A DNA stretch of 64,000 nucleotides from Microthyrium microscopicum (Eukaryota), in contig MU004244.1 in NCBI GenBank assembly GCA_010405405.1, positions 375,895 to 439,894 of the forward strand, read 5' to 3'. The notes beneath the pieces were generated by a model that was given only the letters and a program-made list of their open reading frames with translations, was not told where the DNA came from and did no database searches. The position numbers and the translations under genes were made by a program. Each line of letters starts with the position of its first letter. Position 1 is the first letter of the stretch. This document shows positions 1,138-14,314 of this stretch, piece after piece.

Positions 1138-2880
1138 ATCTAGCAATTACTACATACAAGGGGGTGTCTGAGCGACCATCACTTTTCGATTATGGGTGTA
1201 GGAGGTGGATGGATGAGTGTGTAAGCCCGGTTCAGCCGACCGTGGATGGTAAATCTAAAGCCCGTCGGATTCTCGGACGCGAAGGGTGAAGATGCCAAAG
1301 CAGACGTCCCAAAGCAGCCAAGCTAAGCGGTGTAGGCTTGTTGGATCTGTGATTCAGCAGTGATTCTTGTGGTCGCCTGGCTCCAAGCTTGCCCAAGCTG
1401 GCTTCGGTGTCGGTCAGACTTCGTACCACCTCGCTAAAACCTCTCCAAATCCCCCCTAATAACTCTAATCTTCTGCGGCGTTTACTAATGTCCCGTCCAC
1501 TCAGAAGCCCGCATTCATCGCGTCATCTCAACTCATCTCAGTTTTGCATTCCAAAGCAGCTTGGTAGGGCGCCCTTCTGACTGTTGTCATTGACTCTGTA
1601 GTGCTGCTTGTACTGCGACTGGTTCATACATTTCTAATCCAAAGCCCCGAAGTCAACCAACCACACACTGTTGCTTTCGGCCTCATCATACGCTCCGATC
1701 GGATTCCTAAACTCCTCTCTCAGCGACACATATTACCCCATTGGGGATTTATGCCTCTATTCTCGTTATCTCCTCCATTACGATAGCTTGCGTTATGCTT
1801 TGCACACTCGTAGAATTGACTGTCCGATCGACCAATCTAGTGGTGATTTAACTTCACAGCCTAAACTGCGGGTACTGCGTCGTCACCAAGAGTTTCATTG
1901 TTCATCCACAAGCCATGGCGTTGTATAGGAGCAACGAGTCCTTTGCAGATATTCAAGGCAGCTATTTTTCTTCTGCTTGTCCAAATTAGGTGTTCTTGTC
2001 GCGGCCCTCATTTCTTTAACTTGGCTGCCTTGTGTCAGCCCCTGTCATCGAGTGCCAATGGCATGGCTCCAAGCTTGCTTGCTTCGCCCGCTTCTCGGAT
2101 TCAATTTCCAACGCGAGGGGCATTGTGCGAGAATAGAAGATCTTTGAGGCTGGAGTTTGCATCGCAAGCTCAATTATTAGTCTTGAGACTTTTGCAGAAT
2201 ATCCATTGACTCAATCCCTCTATGTTTGGGGCATTGCTGCTATCCAAAATCGTTCCGACCCACAGATCTTGATCTGTATCAATGATGGCATGATACCATC
2301 AAGAAGTACGGAGGTAAGGAGGGGAGGTTTGCTGAGTAAAAGGCGAAACACAGGGGTCGAGCTCCCCTGCTCCCGTGCCGCTAAACGTGGCACCATCTCT
2401 CAACTCTGGGCAGGTGCTATCTCAAGTCTCAAGTTTATCGCTGCCTGCTTCCAAATACGCCTAATTTATCCTTAGGAGTGTGCGTACTCCCATAATATGG
2501 TACATGAGCTCCATCAATCTCGCTCATTGATACCATGTAGTAAAGAGGAGCCACAAAATGCTCCTGAATCCTTGAAATCCCGAATTCATTAAGTGTCAGT
2601 CCATTTACAGACATTAGACAATACTGTTTACAGTCTCAATCTTGCTTACTATCAAGGCAGAAACTCCAGCATCGATAGCAATGTCTCAAATCTTCACAAG
2701 ACAGTGAATAAAGATGAGCCATGGGGGAACTGTCTTCGCTTCAAGCCTTCAACCCATGAAAAGAATGAGATACAGAGTACGTGCTGATTATTCAATGCCG
2801 CACACTAGATGATGCCACTGTTTGATCGTAGGTAAACGTTAACGAACCATATATACAGACACGATATCTGCTTATATGAG

Positions 2881-3032
2881 TGTTGTGATAAAGAATATGC
2901 CAAGGGATTAGATAATCGTAGGACCTAATTAGGGATAATATAATTCCCTAATTAGCGTGTCCTAAAAACTATATTAGGCCCTTAGACTCTTATAGTAATT
3001 AACTACGCTTTATTTCTTATATTCTTATAATA
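2881..3032 (+). repeat. 5' LTR of the Gypsy element
   Basis: Aligns without gaps to 13642-13793, with differences dominated by C>T/G>A. Followed by tttagtagta, compatible with a RIP-mutated TGGTAGC-type tRNA primer site. Confidence 0.92.
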
Positions 3033-5650
3033 TTTAGTAGTAATAATTTAATTTAATTAGGACCTCTAGATAATAGACCTCTTATAAAAATTCCTAAATT
3101 TACTTTATTATTAATAATTACTTAGAATTAATATCTAGTAAGATATACTCTAAGAATACTATTCCTTAATTAGCTAGCCTTATTATAGCTTAATGCCTAG
3201 TAACTATATATTAAGAAATAATTCTTAAGATTTATATATAATAATATTCTTTACTACTATATATTTTAAAAATATCTTAAATTATTTTTAATTTAAACTA
3301 CTACTTTAAGAATTATTAAATATATTATAAGAATTATCTCTTCTATAATAATACTCTCTTTATTTCTACTAATTTCTACTATATTAATTATATAGCTATT
3401 AGATAAAATATAGAAACTTCTTCTTAAAAAATTCCTTAGAATAACGTTATAGGAACTTTACTATATAAATTAAAGCTAATAAGTAATAATATAGACTTTT
3501 AGCCTTAGGTTATCTTAGGAAATTAGATTAAAATTTTATTTATACTAAGGAAGTATAAAAATCTATTTTAGAATAATTTCTTAACTCTAAATTCTATTTA
3601 ACTAACTTTAGTATAGAAACTTTTAGATTTTAAGACTTTTTTTTTACCTTACTAAGATTATACTTTTTATTAAAACTATTACTTTCTTTTACTAAAATAA
3701 ATAACTAGTATAATAATATTATAGCTTAAGCTATAAAATAAGATACTTAGTAAATATAATACTAAGCTTAAATTACTAATTTAGGTTTTTAAGATAAGTA
3801 ACTTACTCTTATATTACTAAATAACCTTTCTAATATACTAAATCTTAGTCTTAATCTTATAACTTAAGTTATTAATATTTAGTAATTAAGGCTTTAAGCT
3901 TTAAATTATTCTATTAATATATATTAAGTTAATTCCTAGACTATTAATTATCCTTTTACTAAACTATAAACTCTCTTTTAGGCTTAGAACTATATTTCTA
4001 AGGAACTTAATTACGTTCTTTAAGCTTATAACTAAACTTTCTAATATAATAATAATAGAAATTAGTAGTTTATAAATAGGCCTATTCTTTTTTAGAGAGT
4101 ATTATTTTACCTTATTACTAATAGGTAAATTAAATAAAATTATAGCCTTAAACTTATAGAGAACGTTTAATATACTTAGTAGTAAGAAATAGTAAATTAT
4201 ATTACTAAATTAATCTCTTGCCTTAATATAAGTAAGTTTATCTTATATACTTAAGATTACTAAGTAAATAAAATTAAGGCTTATATTTAGACTTAGGCTT
4301 TAACCTAAGAAACTTTATAAATAGATATTACTTACTTAAACTTTATAAGAAAGCTAAGTAAGGAGTTAGATAAGACTATTAAATTACTTTTCTAAACTTT
4401 TAGTCTCTAAAAACTTATTAAGATAATAAGGAATATTCCTTAGAAATAGAAATAATATTTAACTAAGTTTAAGATACCTCTTAATAGTTTATTCTCTAAG
4501 AAACTAAGTAAGTATAATACTTAGGCTAAGAGCCTCTTTTATACTTTTAAGGCTAGTAAAGATATTCTTTTATTAAATTTTGCTCTACTTAAGTAGTAGA
4601 AAATTATTAAGGTTAAAGAATATCTTCTTATTAAGTAATGTCTTTTATAGGCTAACTTAGCTTAGTAATAGACTATAGAGAAGTTTAAGATACTTAAAAG
4701 TTTATCTTATTTCTTTACTTACTTTTAACCTATATTTAGTATTAAAAAAAATATACTTAAGATTAGTATTTAGTAGGATTATATATTATAGGTTTTATTT
4801 ACTAAGAAATTTATCTATTATTTTTATATTCTATAAACTTAAATAAATTCTATACTTACTAATTATAAAATAGGTATTTAAATCTAAGGAGGCTTTAAAG
4901 AATAAGTTATCTTTAAAGCTAAGTATAAGTATAGTACTATTCTTAACCTTATAGTTAATATTTTAGCTTTTAAATAAAAAATTATTAAATATAATATAAA
5001 CTTTTATAGAAATGCGTATAATACTTATAATGCTTATAAGCTAGAATAGCTTAATAAAATCTTTTTTAGTTTTAAAAAAAATAAAGAGCCTATCCTAAAT
5101 ACTAATTTTAAGAAATATCTTAAGAAAGTTAATAATAAAAGCTATACTAATAATAAGCTTAAGTTAAATAATAAAAATTTAGGATAGCTTAATACTATAA
5201 ATAGCTATAATTATTATCTTAAAGAATAATATAATACTTAATACTTTAAGAAATTTAACTTTAATAAAAAGTTATATTCTTCTTATAAAAAGGATTCTAA
5301 AAATAAAAAAGCTTCTATAGATAACTTTAAACTTAAGTACTAGAATTATAGTAAACTTAGCTACTATACTATAAATTATAAAAAACCTAACTAGTAATAA
5401 TAGAGTTTAAAAAACTACTATTACTAAGAAATAAATAAGAATTTTTTAGCTTAGAACTAAAATACTTTACTTATCTATATAATAACTAATAAGTTTTTCT
5501 TAACTATATAAGTAAATATAGTAATACTCTTTTATATCTATCTATTTACTTATATTATAAAAATTATTCTATTAAGACTATAGCTTTTTTAGACTTAGGA
5601 GCTAATTCTATTTATATTAGTTAAAAGATTATTAAGAAACTTAAAGCTTC

Positions 5651-6622
5651 TGTTAGAAATAGGTATAGATATTTAACTCGAACCTGTACTAAAACGGGTG
5701 CATAAAAAGCACGTTAGTGTCCACTAAGATTAGCAAAACACCTTGAATATTCCGTATAAGTAGAGTATATTCGTAAAGATTTAGACCGTTGCAGGAATTG
5801 AACCCGCGACCTGTTCCGATTCCTGACATTATCACCCTTCTTAAGGGCTGGCGTCCCGACAGCCCCGCAGCAGAATAACATCAAAACATTAGGCAGTTGC
5901 ACATAAACAACACACTACCGCAACTTCTACTCCTAGCCACGTACGCTTGCTTTATCAAAAATCTTGCCTGCTTCTACCGTAGCTAATCCTGCATCTGCAA
6001 CATTAGCTAGCCTGTTTGGGCTAGCCTTGATTCCCAAATTTAGTGATTCTCCTCACTGACTTTAGGGGACCCTCCACTCCGGAACTCAGATCGTGTTAGG
6101 TAGGGTCGCCTAAAATTAGTGATCGGAATCACTAAATTTGGGCATCAAGGCTAGCCCAAAGAGGCTAGCTAATGTTGCAGATGCAGGATTAGCTATGGTA
6201 GCAGGTCTTGTTCTGTGCCTCCTACGCTTTTTGGAGAAGGACTTTCAGTGCTGCTTGATCAAGGCAGGCTTGTTCTTGCCTTTACGACCAATCCAGGCTA
6301 AAGGACTTTCTTGTTCTTGCCTAAAATAAGGGCGCCCCTTCCCTGAGGGGCTGAAGCAAGCGTCATCACCTTTCAGGGTGTGTGAACGCTAATTTGGGGA
6401 CGGTAATTCCATACTGTTGGGCCCAAATGGATTAGCGGACACTATGTTAGAAACAGGCACAGATATTCAACTCGAACCTGTACTAAAACGGGTGCATAAA
6501 AAGCACGTTAGTGTCCACTAAGATTAGTAAAACACCTTGAATATTCCGTATAAGTAGAGTATGTTCGTAAAGATTCAGACCGTTGCAGGAATTGAACCCG
6601 CGACCTGTTCCGATTCCTAACA
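5651..6622 (-). mobile_element. Non-autonomous miniature LTR retrotransposon (TRIM) nested in the Gypsy protease region
   Basis: 178-bp direct repeats (5651-5828, 6445-6622) with TG...CA ends and 8 differences, 5-bp TSD GCTTC (5646-5650, 6623-6627), and a 616-bp non-coding interior. PPT-like GAAGGGTGATAA abuts one LTR on the minus strand. GC content is much higher than the host element. Confidence 0.93.
5974..6201. repeat. Long inverted repeat (hairpin) inside the TRIM
   Basis: Arms 5974-6049 and 6126-6201 are reverse complements at 73 of 76 positions. Inner imperfect arms 6053-6073 and 6102-6122 extend the stem. Confidence 0.92.
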
Positions 6623-9600
6623 GCTTCTATAATATTTATCTTAGAGAAAGAAATTACTCTTATAGATAGCTATATAGTTATAACTTCCTTTAGGATTTAC
6701 TTATTTTATTATATTAGGACTTTTTATAGCTACTTTAAGATATATATTCTAAATATTTTTAATCTTAATATTATTTTTAGACTCTTATAGTTTTAGTTAT
6801 ATAATCTATAAATTAATTAAATAATAAAGTAAATTAAGCTTATAGAGTAATACTTAGGAGGCCTTTATACTTATAAGCTTACTATAAGACGCTAAATAGA
6901 GCTTCTTTAGAATAAGAAGAGCTACTTAGAATAAATAGAGTAATTTATAGTTAGCTTTCTTTATATAATCTTTTAAGTACTTTAGAATAGAGTAAAAAGA
7001 GTAAAAAATAAAGTTAAGAACGTTCTTTAGCTAATTTAAGGAATATAAGAATAGCTTAATATTCTCTTAATAACTAATAATCTTAATATTAATAAACTTA
7101 CTCTAAAAGATAAAGGTATATAAAAACTTTTAAATAATTACTATAAGTTCTTTTATTATATCCTTTCTAAACTTTTACTATATTCTAAGTTTAATTATAA
7201 AATCTTTATAAGAGATACTTTTCTTTATAACTAGGCTTATTATTAGATATCTAGCCTATAACTAAAAAAGTAGAAAAAGTAGATTTAAGAATTACTTACT
7301 AAAGAACTTATTAAAGTCTTAAGAAGTCTTTAGAGTTTCTCTATCCTATTTATATTAAAGCTAAGAAAAAAATAGAGAATATATATTAACTATTATCTAC
7401 TTAATATAGTTATATATAAGGATACTTATCTTTTATTATAAATTAATAAGTATCTTAATACTATTAATAGAGTAAGATTCTTCTCTAAGCTTAACTTCCT
7501 ATTAGGCTATTAATAAGTCTATATAGTAAAAAAAAATATTAAGAAAATAGCTTTTAATACTAAGTTTAGGAAGTATAAGTTCTTTATTATACTTTTTAGA
7601 TTAATAAATACGCTATTATTTTTTTAGTATATAATAAATACTCTTCTCTAGCTCTTCTTATTAACTTATATAATTATTTACTTAAATAATATTATTATTT
7701 ACTTAGATACTATAGAAGAATATTATAAGTATATTACCTAGGTTTTAAAGATTCTTTAGAATAATAAGCTCTATGCTTATTTTAATAAATATATCTTTAG
7801 AATTAAGAAAATTAAATTCTATAGCTATAAAGTAAGAAATTAATAAATCTAATCCTTATATAAAAAGACTACCTTAATTAAGTCCTAGCTTATACTTAAG
7901 AATATATATAAAGTACGTTAATTCTTTAGTCTTACCTTATACTATTAGTAGTATATTAAAAATTTTACTAAGATTACTACCTCTATTTTTAATCTCCTAA
8001 AAGAGGCTAATCTAGATATTAAGAAAAAGAAGTACTACCTTATTACTTAGACTTATTAATATACTATAGCCTTTAATAAAATTAAGACTTTATTAACCTT
8101 ATTACTTATCTTAATAATATATAATTTATAAAAGCCTATAAAGCTTTAAATAAATGCTTTAAATTATATAATTAGTTATAAGCTAGTATAAAAAAATAAC
8201 TAAAGTAAATAGTACTTAGTTACTTTTAATAGCTATAAGCTAAGTAAAGCTAAACTTAATTATTTAGTATATAAGAAAAAGCTTCTTATAGTTAAGAATA
8301 TAATTAGGAAATACTAATACTACTTTCTAAGAAAAACTATTAAAGTAATTATAAATTATAATAGCTTATAATATATAAATATAATTAAGAATAATACTTA
8401 ATATATTACTTAATAAATTAAAGAGTTCTAAGAATTTAATCTTATTTTTATATATTATAAGAGTTTCTAAGTAGTAGTTCTTAATACTCTTAGTTATTAT
8501 CTAAACTTTTAAAAAGGATAAATTAATATTATCTAGAAAATAAAGCTTAAAGATAGTAATAATAATTTATCTTTTAAAGCGTAAGCTACTTTATTAGAAT
8601 CCTTATAAGAGTAAAAAGAATAAGAAGCTCTTTATATATAGAGCTTATAAAAAGTATTAGAAAAGAAAAATTATATTATCTCTACTAGTATATAAAAAAG
8701 ACTCTAAAAAAGTATTCTTAATTATTTTTAGATTAATCCTAATAAAGATATTAGAAGAAAATATAAGTATTTATTCTTAGAGAAAGATTCTATTAAAGCT
8801 AAGATACTTACTAGTTTACTCTATATTTATTTCTTTTATTACTAAGACCTTATTAAGAAAGTATATAATTAATATAGGTATTTATTATATATAGGCTTTA
8901 CTAATATCTTTAAACTAAAGAGTTAATAGCTAAGAATAGAGAATAACTTTTAAAAATTTATTAAGTTCTATCCTATATATTAAGTTTAATAAATAGATTA
9001 AAGTAGGCCTAAATATAGGTTTTACTATTAAGTATAAAACTTATAGCTATTTAAGGCTTAGAAAATTAACTTAATTAGTAAACTTCTATAAAGTCTTCTT
9101 AAGAACTAGTATATTATTTATATAATTAACTATATTATAAAATAGCTTATTATAGAAGTAGTATTAAATATTATTACTTCTATAGTTATAGAATTTATTT
9201 ATAGAAAAATTATCTTAAAATATAGTTCTTCTTAATTATTAATCTTAAATAATAGACTTTAGTTTATTTTAGACGTAATTTTATTTTTATTATAATAGAT
9301 AAAGACTAAGTACTACTTAATAGCCTTATATAACCCTTAGTCTAATAAAAAGATTAAGAAATTTAATAGCCTACTAGGTATATTCTTAACTAAGTTTCTA
9401 AAAGGAAAACTTATAGCTAGCTAAGATCTATATCTAGATTAAGTAGTTTATACTATTAGGATATAAGCTTATACTATATTAGAAATATTTCTCTTCTTCT
9501 TTATTTATAAAAAAAATCCTAAAGATTTTAAAATAAGCTAGGTAAAGGAAAATAAATAAGCTAAATTAACTAGTACTATACTTCTTATCTATATAATTAT

Positions 9601-12600
9601 TAAAGATTACCTAAAGAAGGTTAGAATTATTAAGTAAGTTTATTATAACGCTTTATTAAAATAAGCTATAGCCTTAAACCTTATTAATAGTAATATAATT
9701 TTAAAAGAGGACTCTATTATTAAGTTCTCTATAAGTTTTTATATACTTCTTAAAAATTTAAATAAAACTAAATTCTAGGTAGTATAGTTTAGCTCTTATA
9801 AAGTCTTAAAAGCTTACTTTTTAAGAATATACGCTTTTAAGATACTTAATAAAAGAATACTTAGAAACTTTATCTATAGAAATTACCTTATATAAGTATA
9901 TATATAAAAAGAAAATAAATATTATTACTAGAACTAGCTATATTTTAAATATAAGTAACTAAGTAAGAATAACTTTAAAAACGTTCTAAATAAAGAATAT
10001 AAAAGTAAAATAGATATATCTACTATAACTAAGAAAGACTAGCTTAATAGATTAAGAAACCTTTTAGTAGAGTTAATTAATATTAAGAAGTTTAGTATTA
10101 AGAGATATTACTTAAGTTTACTTACTATCTCTTTTAACTTTATAAGAAAAGTTTAAGAAGCTAAAATAGGTATTTATAAATAAAAAAAAAAAAATTCTAT
10201 AATAACTATTTATAATCTAAGTAGTAACTTAGAAACTTCTATAATATTAGAATATATTTCTTTTAACTTAATTTTAGCTTTAGTATAAAGTAATTTAAAA
10301 TAGATAGAGTAAATTATATAGAAGGTAGAATATTTTATAGTACTATAAGATTTAGTAAAAGAGAAAAATAATAATATTTCTATTCTTCTAAATTAAAACT
10401 TAGTAAAAAAGGAAATTCTTCTAGCTATAGTAAATTAAGAATTAATCTTTATATTATTAGAATAATAAGAGTAAAGAAATAAATTATTAAAGCTAAAGAG
10501 CTATAATAAGATTACTACCCTAATTGCCTATATATCTATACTAGAAGTAATAAATCTATATAAATAGGTATCTAATCTTAAAGAAGATTATTAAAATATT
10601 AATCCTTTATTACTAAATACTATAGAAGTAAAGGTTTTTTCTATAGATTATCCTAAACCTAGTCTACTATAAGAGATAAATATAACTAAAGGATTCTTAT
10701 AGAATACTAATATATTTAGGCTAATTATAACGCTTAGTAATTCTATATACTTTAGTACTAGCTTATAATATTTAGAATTAAGATAAAAATAGTAGAAGAC
10801 TACTTCTAAATAAGAAATTATTCTATATATAGATATAGGTAAGGTACTTATAAGAAAAAAAAGAAAAATTAATCTTTTATTATTTCTTTTATAACCTTTC
10901 TTAATTATATTTATTTAAGGAAACTATTTATAAGAAATTACTTTTATTTATTATTAATTTAAGTAAACTATTATAAGTAATAATAACTAAAATTAAACCT
11001 TTAAATCTCCTTAGTAATCTCTAAGACTATTACTAAGGTTATTTAAATATAATAAGCTATCTTTAGATCTCTCTAGTAATTCCTAAGACTATTACTAAAA
11101 GCCTTTTTATAAAATATTTAATAGTAAGAAATAGGAAACCTAAATAACCTAAATTCCTAAGCTAACTTACTACTTTCTAATTTTAAAGTAATATAAGCTT
11201 AATACTACCTTTCTCTATTTCTTAGAAAATAACTAACTCTAAGAGTCTAGTCTTATTTCTTTCTTTATATAAGTAAGCTAATATACTTCTTCTCTATTAA
11301 AACTAAATATAGTTAGTAAAGCTTTTAGATAATTAGAAATAGTATAAATAATAGGCTACTAGTAGAGCTATAAATAGAAGTAATAAGTAGTTTAGTAATT
11401 ACCTATATTAATTATATAGTACCTATGCTTATCTTCTTTATTATAAATAAATAATTTTATTTACTATTTAGAGTATAATTTATATAAGCTCTATTAAATA
11501 TAAAATTACTCTTTATATCCTAAAAGACTATATAATTATACTAAGTAATAACTTCTTTATCTAAGAGCTTAAGTATATAGTAGTATTTATATTTATTATA
11601 ATATTAATTAGGTTAGTAACTTTAAATATAAGCTATAGCTACTTATAACTTATTACTACTAAATAATAAGTTAGTTATTACTATAGTAGCTAGCTTAGTC
11701 TAAGTAAGATTATACTTAATATAATATTTAAGTAATACTAAGATCTTTTAAAAGATTTTAATTCTCTAATTTTAAAGATTCTATAAGACCTAGATAAGCT
11801 TATTCTAAGTCTTTTTCTTATATATTTATAGCTAGTAGTTTAAATAGATTAATTAACTACTTATTATAGTATAAGCTATATTATTAAGTAAATACTTATA
11901 AGTTTACTTATTAAGCTTCTTTAAGAAAGCTAAATAATAACTTAAATTAAGCTCTACTTTAATTTAAGGCTTAGGTAAGGTTTTATATATACTACTTTAT
12001 TTTTTTATAAGCTAACATAATAGCATCTTTATCTTTTCCTTACTTAAAAACTTAACGTACTTTAGTTTATTCTTAAAAATATTTAAGAAGCTAGTTTTAT
12101 TAACTATATACTTATATACTTATAGAATATTATAAGTTTATTCTAGCTTAAGTATTATATAATAGTAGTAGCTTTAGCTATACTCTTAGTTAATAATCTA
12201 GTATAAGATTATTTTAAAATATACTAAGCTATTTTAAATACGCTAGAATATATCTTCTATTACTTAAATCTAAAAATATATTATATTTTACTTTATACGT
12301 ACTTATATAGAGTTAAGTAATATAGTATTTAAGAAGTTATAATTTAGACTAAAGGTATTAGTAATATAAGTACTAAATATTATAAATAGCTTAATCTTAT
12401 TTTAATCTAGAAAACTTATTTCTTAGAGCTATTAAAGCATTACTTACGTTAGAGTATTCTTCTTAATAGAACCTATTTTTCGTTTAAGTATTTCTTAAGT
12501 AGCTTATTTATAAGCTAACTTCTACTAGTAAAAGAACTTATTCTTTAAGACTAGAAAATATTATTTAAACGTAAGTAATTATTTATAAGATTATCTTATC

Positions 12601-13641
12601 TTAGAATTAATATTATAGTAGCTTATAGAAGCTTACTAGTAAGTCTTCTTAGGAAAAGGATTTAAATAGCTAATACTTTATTAATAACTAAATTTAGCTA
12701 AAGAAGGTAAAAAGTAGTTATTATTATTCTCTATACTTAAGAATTTTAATATACTACTTTATTAGCTATAAGCTTTAGCTAGAGAAAATAAATATATAAG
12801 TATATTTATAAATAATTATAAATATTCCTTAGAATAAAGTTAAGTAACTAGACTTAAAGATTAAGTAGTAGAACTTAAAGCCTACTATAAAGATTTAGCT
12901 TAATTATATTAAGCCTAAGAAACCTAAGAGTAAGTACTACGCTTTCTAAATAGCTTTAAAGATAATATAATTAATTTAGTATAAAAAGCTATTTTAAAAA
13001 GCTTTTATAATTAAGAGCTTAAGAAGAATTAAGAATTAAAGAAGGAAAATATATAAAGCTACTTATACTTAATAATATTAAAAGTATAAGAGGAAATTTA
13101 CTTCTACTAGCTTAAAGTATTATAAAAGTATAATAAAGAAGAAGAAGAGAAAATAATAGATTATAAAGCTTTATAGATATAAGATTAAGTCCTTATCTTA
13201 TATTTACTTAAACTAGTAATTATTACTTAGTTCTTTATTACTACCTATATATTACTTTTTATAAACTTTATTCTTTAAAACTTTAAAGTATAGGTTATAT
13301 ATATTTTTTACTAGATTAAGTAGCCTTAGTATATTTATATAAACTTCTTATAATTTCTTAATTTATTACTACTAATAGCCTCTATATAAATAAACCTTTT
13401 TAAAAGGATTAGGAACTATAAACGCCTAAGTACTATTTATAATAATTTAACCTAAATTTTAAGAAAAATCTTAGAGAGATAATTCTTTAGAGATTACCTT
13501 ATAATATAGCTAAGGTAATAGCCTTAGACCTTAGATAAGTTCCTTATTAGTTATTATAATGTTCTTTTTATTTTACTTATTTATTAAAGCTATAACTATA
13601 GGATTTATAATCTTAAAAGAGTTTATGCTAGTAAGAAAGAA

Positions 13642-13793
13642 TATTATAATAAAAAATATACTAAGGAATTAAATAATTATAGGACCTAATTAAGGATAAT
13701 ATAATCTCCTAATTAGCATATCCTAAAAACTATATTAGGCCCTTAGACTCTCGTAGTAATCAACCACGCTTTATTTCTCATATTCTTGCAACA
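13642..13793 (+). repeat. 3' LTR of the Gypsy element
   Basis: Second LTR copy ending ttgcaaca, followed by TSD ATGAG and preceded by purine-rich agtaagaaagaa. Confidence 0.92.
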
Positions 13794-14314
13794 ATGAGCA
13801 TTCCCAACGTCCAGAGTGTTCTCTTGCATGCCATCCAGCCTATCAGGGCTCAGAGACCTTATGCATGCCTCTGGTTTGCTCACTAATCCTCCCTGTTCCT
13901 TACGCTTTCATTGAATCTGAGCTCGGGGCCTCGGAGCAACCGCGGATTCAAGGTTTGGTCAGCGGCCCAACCCATGTTCCAACACCTTTTAGAGACACCA
14001 CGAACTCCTTAACGTTATCTCATCCCTGATTACTTCCTGATTACCTGGTCCTGATCAGCACTTTGTCTTGATGACCGACCGCTTCTTCGGTGCAACTCAC
14101 AGCTGTTAGACGATCAGGTCCCGAGCGTTTTGCGACACCACAGTCTCCACCAGTTCAGATCATGCACTCACCCACAGTCGCCAATGTCTCACAAACACAC
14201 CAGAATTCTTATCGCGCGATGCTCACATGCACAGCGCCCTAGACGACGAACCATCGTTATTGAATAAATGATCAGTTACTCAAAAGCCTCCTAATCTCGT
14301 TTTCTTTTCCCGCC

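Follow-up and report, generated by a model that had tools for sequence, protein, structure and literature searches.

A tRNA-like B-box module in the LTRs of an apparently self-priming fungal TRIM, possibly kept as a lone TFIIIC site

The locus studied here raises the question of what a tRNA-like arm with a strong B-box is doing in both LTRs of a very small retroelement that sits in RIPped DNA. The window, by which we mean the whole 64-kb stretch of DNA that was analyzed, contains an island of normal base composition (45% GC) within a CpA/TpG-depleted block of 17 to 19% GC, and this island is the site of the element, here called TRIM-A (Table 1). TRIM-A is an insertion, as contigs of the surrounding repeat family skip exactly positions 5651 to 6622. 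The polypurine tract and the primer-binding site (PBS) place it on the minus strand, opposite in orientation to the heavily RIPped Gypsy-type element that hosts it. It has the features by which TRIMs are recognized, namely, two LTRs, a length of less than 1 kb, a TSD, a PBS, and a polypurine tract, and it is overlapped by no open reading frame among those of at least 150 amino acids, the size considered. The LTR and the internal region each match one locus only in the 37-Mb genome, counts that are lower bounds. A low-depth sequencing run, with coverage over TRIM-A just at positions 5857 to 6088, was left out.

Table 1. Positions in the window of TRIM-A, its parts, and its surroundings
Feature	Positions	Strand	Remarks
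TRIM-A, whole TRIM	5651..6622	-	972 bp including a nested 222-bp MITE; one genomic locus
5' LTR of TRIM-A	6445..6622	-	178 bp, TG...CA
3' LTR of TRIM-A	5651..5828	-	178 bp; 8 differences from the 5' LTR, all C/T at CpA/TpG
TSD GCTTC, left copy	5646..5650	.	
TSD GCTTC, right copy	6623..6627	.	
Polypurine tract	5829..5842	-	Adjoins the 3' LTR of TRIM-A
Self-priming PBS	6432..6444	-	Directly 3' of the 5' LTR
Inferred RNA 5' end/self-primer	6509..6521	-	LTR positions 102-114; complementary to the PBS over 13 nt, one G.U
T5 run	6498..6502, copy 5704-5708	-	20 nt past the inferred RNA start; same place in TRIM-B
U5 3' end	6445..6479	-	Complementary (with G.U pairs) to the motif-bearing start of U3
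tRNA-like variable loop, T-arm, and 7 nt, U3 of 5' LTR	6578..6606	-	LTR positions 17-45
Same tRNA-like segment, U3 of 3' LTR	5784..5812	-	27.2 bits, as in the 5' LTR
B-box, 5' LTR	6588..6598	-	16.4 bits; without an upstream A-box; LTR positions 25-35
B-box, 3' LTR	5794..5804	-	
First 16 nt of LTR	5813..5828	-	Weak similarity to the SINE head upstream of the variable loop; can form a hairpin with the T-loop/T-stem 3' strand
Second B-box-like 9-mer	6470..6478, copy 5676-5684	-	Chance level; overlaps the U5 stretch complementary to the T-loop
Host: RIPped Gypsy-type LTR element	2878..13798	+	160-bp repeats at 2878-3037 and 13639-13798; RNase H remnant at 8126-8404
Nested MITE	5977..6198	.	Arms of ~100 bp, inverted; TA flanks at 5975-76 and 6199-6200

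The interior of TRIM-A folds into a long hairpin, which we rejected as part of the design of the element; it is a separate, TA-flanked MITE with copies elsewhere. Those copies occupy five other loci, one of them RIPped and most in GC-normal DNA.

TRIM-A appears, from its sequence, to self-prime in the manner of Tf1. Its PBS can form a 13-bp duplex with a stretch of its own LTR (z -5.76; 0/200 shuffles), an arrangement that has been described for Tf1 and Tj1 (PMC4600332). This complementarity suggests that the RNA starts near LTR position 102, and with such a start the B-box would lie 77 nt upstream, in U3. A genome-wide search for the self-priming signature returned two matches (control, 0), TRIM-A and a second element, TRIM-B, described below. 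Beyond this genome, 12 metagenome and 3 viral matches were found in collections poor in fungal genomes, none of them with a second LTR or a B-box. In both TRIMs the inferred RNA start falls within a short palindrome (positions 6505 to 6522 of the window and the LTR of the TRIM-B copy L045), which leaves a PBS-like half-site just upstream in U3.

A non-autonomous element of this type would depend on a Gypsy helper, for which the Tf1/sushi group would imply RT and integrase of the chromovirus clade. Three of 150 scored Gypsy RT-RNase H matches are free of stop codons, the rest being broken by RIP. The unbroken frames lie at C2:1274937 (+), C6:2137472 (+), and C2:944585 (-). The junction ACA-AGTGTCC, as expected of a helper with the same PBS, has 102 matches in the genome (control, 107), and among the 100 listed none is near any of the three frames.

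The tRNA-like segment had been reported by the earlier note as a 29-mer on the minus strand of both LTRs with canonical tRNA spacing. The two copies are identical and consist of a 5-nt variable loop, a 5-bp T-stem with one G.U pair, a 7-nt T-loop, and 7 further nucleotides. A covariance model trained on 21 host tRNA 3' halves gave 27.2 bits at both sites (E 4.8e-5 in the 64-kb window), compared to 10.3 bits for the next-best site among the 13 hits listed; 10 of the training tRNAs, when rescored, fell between 22.6 and 33.8 bits, a range that includes the 29-mer. On a matrix built from 19 host genes (range, 9.8 to 16.8 bits), the B-box reaches 16.4 bits, whereas none of 99,978 background positions reaches 14. 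The description of a TRIM that carries a tRNA-like piece with a B-box is thus borne out. This strong, lone B-box lies within a tRNA-like module of 24 to 35 nt.

Equally well founded was the statement that the 5' half is absent: ARAGORN finds no tRNA in the window, and Rfam gives no tRNA-family match at E<=10 between positions 5600 and 6700, where a weak, 9-bit match to a tmRNA 3' end over 6584 to 6700 is seen. The best A-box candidates 29 to 110 nt upstream of the B-box score 0.6 and 2.0 bits, against a background median of 3.0. In two further details the earlier description holds in part. The 7 nt labeled as the acceptor 3' strand are present, but "acceptor" is a position label only, as the best partner strands make 5/7 and 6/7 pairs and neither is followed by an A-box. 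A second GGTTCGAGT does occur in each LTR, but it lacks the C that is invariant in 21/21 host tRNAs and has a chance-level score. We rejected this second B-box-like GGTTCGAGT as a real B-box, since its 7.7 to 7.9 bits are expected 0.12 to 0.36 times per LTR. Sequence derived from 5S rRNA, as in Cassandra, is not among the seven Rfam matches at E<=10.

Is the resemblance to a tRNA arm a coincidence? No host tRNA donor was found, and the start of the LTR can form another hairpin that is more stable than the T-arm (-13 versus -8.4 kcal/mol), both of which would suit an accidental likeness. However, the E value within 64 kb and the recurrence of the motif in a second family, together with its similarity to a SINE, make chance extremely improbable; the covariance score and the recurrence in TRIM-B by themselves already largely refute it.

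TRIM-B was found by searching the genome with the 22-nt core of the motif. It lies on the same contig as TRIM-A (L045; C15:988945-989516, minus) and measures 573 bp, with identical 172-bp LTRs, a 229-bp interior, and the TSD AAAGA. A RIPped copy (L055; C11:952367-952924, minus) is flanked by the TSD GGTAG. A locus next to an N gap (L056; C5:1813640-1813734) holds part of the 3' LTR, followed by identical downstream sequence, and is probably an assembly duplicate. In TRIM-B the tRNA-like piece resides in the leader and not in the LTR, its B-box (14.5 bits on the 19-gene host matrix) lying 127 nt past the inferred RNA start.

TRIM-A and TRIM-B can barely be aligned, and the tRNA-like motif is the best-kept piece between their sequences, with 22/24 nt in common and a score reached by 0/1000 shuffles. 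A second patch, in the R region, matches at 17/20 positions and is reached by 25/1000 shuffles, whereas a third is at background (382/1000). A RIP-tolerant 28-nt pattern of the motif has four matches in the genome, all of them in TRIM-A or TRIM-B copies (control, 1). The T-stem itself is not maintained: pair 52-62 is a G.G mismatch in TRIM-B, and the T-arm, with predicted pairing of 0.05 and 0.00, is not the predicted fold of either inferred RNA. This points to conservation of the sequence rather than of the fold.

The earlier note had proposed that the fragment was captured from a tRNA and had advised a comparison of the 29-mer with the host tRNA set. No such donor emerged from the host tRNA set, itself incomplete: no tRNA gene lies within three mismatches of the 22-nt core, and the best identity among 22 compared rows is 22/30, while host tRNAs compared pairwise average 15.8 with a maximum of 24. 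The set derives from 63 of 1518 candidates scored with Rfam, which yielded 33 matches; 19 served as genes, 10 SINE copies and 1 RIPped remnant were discarded, and 3 lacked a locus. The covariance model additionally used L050 and L103, and the doubtful L090 entered only the 22-row identity list. The 22-nt core at up to three mismatches has four genome matches, namely, the two LTRs, TRIM-B, and one B-box-like site, and the exact pattern GGTC-NNN-B-box has seven, two of which are the TRIM-A LTRs. A loose pattern of B-box plus T run was uninformative (488 matches; control, 501).

A more probable source is a resident SINE family of 1.2 kb with a full tRNA-like head (A-box, 13.7 bits; B-box, 16.8 bits). 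The TRIM-B piece matches this head in 28/33 columns, a level reached by 0/300 shuffles; the match of the TRIM-A piece is weaker (3/300). Compared with the SINE, the 16 nt upstream of the variable loop, a stretch in which tRNAs differ from one another, give 18 for TRIM-B and 12 for TRIM-A, against at most 9 and 10, respectively, with the 21 host tRNAs. By sequence, the module thus probably goes back to a tRNA-derived SINE head, of which it represents the 3' part, and not directly to a tRNA gene, and it probably reached the lineage either through insertion or through a template switch within a shared particle. For TRIM-A taken alone the suggested link to the SINE is weak (12 versus 10). The TRIM-A and TRIM-B pieces share 23/30 positions with each other and 19/30 with the SINE, so that the donor would have been either related to this SINE or an earlier form of it.

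Copies of the SINE include L023, L024, and L025 (from 1501) and the RIPped L031 to L033, L036, L037, L039, and L041. The family is long for a SINE, has an intron-like insert, an encoded CCA, TSDs, and T5 runs, and inflates tRNA predictions.

The earlier note had also suggested that the motif lets TRIM-A persist inside RIP heterochromatin. All 8 of the 8 differences between the LTRs are of the RIP type; none lies in the motif, but this is within expectation, and the motif is not significantly spared (P = 0.27 to 0.36). The RIPped TRIM-B copy has seven RIP changes within the 24-nt motif and has lost the B-box. Protection from RIP by the motif is therefore unsupported. The light RIP of TRIM-A is explained by its single copy number and short repeats. 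Passages in a preprint on RIP deal with spreading into linkers and not with a length threshold. Conservation above the surroundings, which the earlier note had put forward as a test, likewise does not reach significance within families (for TRIM-A, at the P values just given); between TRIM-B and its RIPped copy, non-RIP changes number 0/24 in the motif and 20/193 in the rest of the internal region, which are small numbers.

What, then, might the module do? Conservation at the level of sequence together with flexibility of position is consistent with a lone TFIIIC site, and we tentatively favor the view that the module is kept as a position-flexible candidate site of this kind, like the ETC sites of yeast, and does not itself initiate transcription by Pol III. 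In yeast, TFIIIC sites that have only a B-box are known to serve as boundaries (PMC3395662). TRIM-A as a whole could be a Tf1/sushi-like LTR element, non-autonomous and self-priming, that resides in a RIP-proficient fungus and carries an orphan, SINE-derived TFIIIC site, a composite picture that we hold with similar reserve. In such an element, TFIIIC would bind the module at the outer edge of the LTR and would maintain a nucleosome-poor boundary there, with the silent RIP chromatin of the flank on one side and, 77 nt downstream of the B-box, the element's own start site, probably one for Pol II, on the other. A Gypsy helper would copy the RNA, using as primer a piece that it cleaves from the 5' end of that same RNA. 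The tRNA-likeness well above background and the strength of the lone B-box argue for a TFIIIC site. Against it, the evidence comes from three element copies in one genome, the site in TRIM-B is internal and fits less well with a role as an edge insulator, and a recent neutral transfer between co-packaged RNAs would equally give a match of 22/24. The lack of significant excess conservation within families, the lack of relatives with a second LTR in the metagenome and viral collections, the thin SINE link of TRIM-A alone, and the helper with the same PBS, not located among the listed matches, also weigh on this side.

Such a transfer is the core of the view that the module is a functionless passenger, a scrap of SINE or tRNA origin that was acquired a single time and then exchanged by two TRIM RNAs with a common helper. 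The absence of an A-box, the lack of significant excess conservation within families, the different positions in TRIM-A and TRIM-B, the very low copy number, and the many SINE copies in the genome as potential donors would all be expected of a passenger. We nevertheless regard this as somewhat unlikely, given that the motif is the best-conserved stretch between two barely alignable families and that both unRIPped copies keep a B-box of host grade (16.4 and 14.5 bits).

The module could instead act in the RNA, the T-arm-like piece pairing with U5 beside the PBS and so linking the RNA 3' end (in TRIM-A) or the leader (in TRIM-B) to the site of initiation. A comparable job is done by the T-arm of the tRNA primer in Ty3 and by CYC5/CYC3 in Ty1 (PMC5371799, PMC3592414). 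In TRIM-A, each of the two sequences, motif and U5 end, has the other as its best pairing region (-28.3 kcal/mol), with 1/1000 U5 shuffles and 0/1000 motif shuffles in scans of 760 and 763 windows, and the predicted pairing probability in the inferred RNA is ~0.7. However, this idea was formed after the fold had been seen. The pairing is weak in TRIM-B, where it is not the best window, is reached by 35 and 75/1000 shuffles, and has a probability of 0.0 in the ensemble. Moreover, it competes with the R:PBS duplex in nested folding (0.57 versus 0.20), the symmetry of the ends at the DNA level is modest (66/2000), and C-to-T decay of an old inverted repeat in DNA would also leave G.U-rich matches. 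A two-strand fold is uninformative on coexistence, as R:PBS and U5:motif are crossing pairs that cannot show together. We also looked for compensatory U5-motif pairing between the families, which is unsupported: a motif pairs with the U5 of the other family as stably as with its own (-27.2 and -25.5 versus -28.3 and -26.8 kcal/mol). The modeled role in the RNA thus seems to us doubtful. About equally doubtful is a broader version, in which a captured T-arm module works at any position in an ascomycete lineage of self-priming TRIMs and supplies, in elements that lack a tRNA primer, the U5 contact in cis that the T-arm of such a primer makes in other LTR elements, a lone TFIIIC boundary, or both. 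If true, captured small-RNA sequence would serve TRIMs in a third way, in addition to the promoters of Cassandra and Helenus.

The earlier note had also envisaged a promoter role. A true TRIMp3, in which the B-box would drive Pol III transcription and the conserved T5 in the 3' LTR would serve as terminator, has the precedent of Helenus. It gains something from TRIM-B, whose B-box lies past the inferred start and whose only runs of T4 or longer are the T5 of each LTR, and from a weak A-like/B-like pair at tRNA spacing (47 nt) that flanks the R region of TRIM-A. Yet the two members of that pair score 5.7 and 7.9 bits, each at background level, and the strong B-box of TRIM-A stands upstream of the inferred RNA start without an A-box. 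The inferred RNA of TRIM-A also contains five T4 runs, as well as T5 runs at +20 and +561. On these sequence grounds the promoter claim is unsupported: Pol III promotion looks unlikely for TRIM-A and less unlikely for TRIM-B, and as an account of the module we consider it very doubtful.

The TFIIIC reading that we favor has partial counterparts among known systems. The earlier note had treated a fungal analogue of Cassandra with tRNA sequence as a novelty, but elements of this general kind have been published as Helenus, or TRIMp3 (Kojima 2024, PMC10886601). Helenus elements are TRIMs with tRNA-like LTR sequence, mostly with an A- plus a B-box, that are tRNA primed and linked to Copia; among fungi they are described from Basidiomycota, in Pucciniales and some Agaricomycetes (PMC10886601). 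The term "Ascomycota" has zero occurrences in the Helenus supplement by term search, and B-box-only cases could stand in other parts of that work (PMC10886601). Like TRIM-A, they are shorter than 1 kb and have a tRNA-like LTR with a GGTTC B-box, a 5-bp TSD, a PBS and PPT, and a fungal host, and their proposed origin by SINE insertion parallels the route that we infer here (PMC10886601). In contrast, most Helenus LTRs have an A-box (TRGCY...YGG), which TRIM-A lacks, and Helenus primes on a host tRNA (PMC10886601), whereas the PBS of TRIM-A appears to be of the Gypsy Tf1/sushi type and can pair with its own LTR. TRIM-A further differs in that its B-box stands alone, at the 5' edge of U3 and ahead of the inferred start, in that its host, judging by the RIP pattern and genome size, is probably an ascomycete, and in that a sister family has the fragment in a place other than the LTR. 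Judged by sequence, TRIM-A would function like Helenus only in part, if at all, and we advise against classifying it there.

Other comparisons are likewise partial. The Cassandra elements of plants resemble TRIM-A in having an element derived from a small Pol III RNA in their LTRs. Theirs is derived from 5S rRNA, with validated Pol III transcription that has both its start and its end within the captured sequence, a geometry different from that of TRIM-A (PMC10886601). Tf1 and Tj1, of the Tf1/sushi group, share with TRIM-A a PBS complementary to the element's own LTR, TG...CA ends, and a 5-bp TSD; they are autonomous, and the cited account of them mentions no tRNA-like piece, whereas TRIM-A is non-autonomous and has one (PMC4600332). 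The ETC/COC sites of yeast, as in TRIM-A, have a B-box without a transcribed Pol III gene and conservation that extends beyond the B-box (PMC3395662). However, ETC sites are fixed host loci with demonstrated binding of TFIIIC, in the absence of TFIIIB and Pol III, and a 10-nt 3' extension, and TRIM-A carries a candidate site on a mobile element (PMC3395662). TRIMs as such have been reported in a dothideomycete (PMC4646964). A literature search, outside most subscription journals and Repbase, found no TRIM with a tRNA-derived B-box that is self-priming or from an ascomycete.

We conclude that the finding in TRIM-A is real and non-random and that its general kind is known; what is new is the apparent self-priming, the sister family, and the probable link to a SINE. 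If the module is functional, tRNA-bearing TRIMs are no longer confined to tRNA-primed, Copia-linked elements of basidiomycetes but include self-priming elements of Gypsy type in a RIP-proficient fungus, and a half-promoter module is able to sit in either U3 or the leader. The two compact natural variants would then allow a direct test of a lone B-box as a TFIIIC boundary or of a T-arm mimic that aids tRNA-free priming. If it is neutral, the two families offer a snapshot of the SINE-to-TRIM capture route proposed by Kojima (PMC10886601).

The searches for tRNA-like sequence also drew attention to other loci in this genome. L094 and L099 (near 1500; C1:1040236 and C1:1358205, with a third copy at C1:2082012) belong to a dispersed short repeat that opens with a B-box-like sequence, contains a CACACATCT/AGATGTGTG hairpin as well as a T5 run, and has no Rfam match at E<=0.5. 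L046 (near 1501-1540; C10:1592895) has a variable-loop/B-box-like sequence three mismatches from the TRIM motif, followed by T runs, and scores 11.6 bits. L048 (near 1450-1520; C4:1482093, minus) combines an A-box with a strong tRNA-like 3' half (31.5 bits), is not called by ARAGORN, and has no immediate T run; it is possibly the leader of a Pol III noncoding RNA or the head of a SINE.
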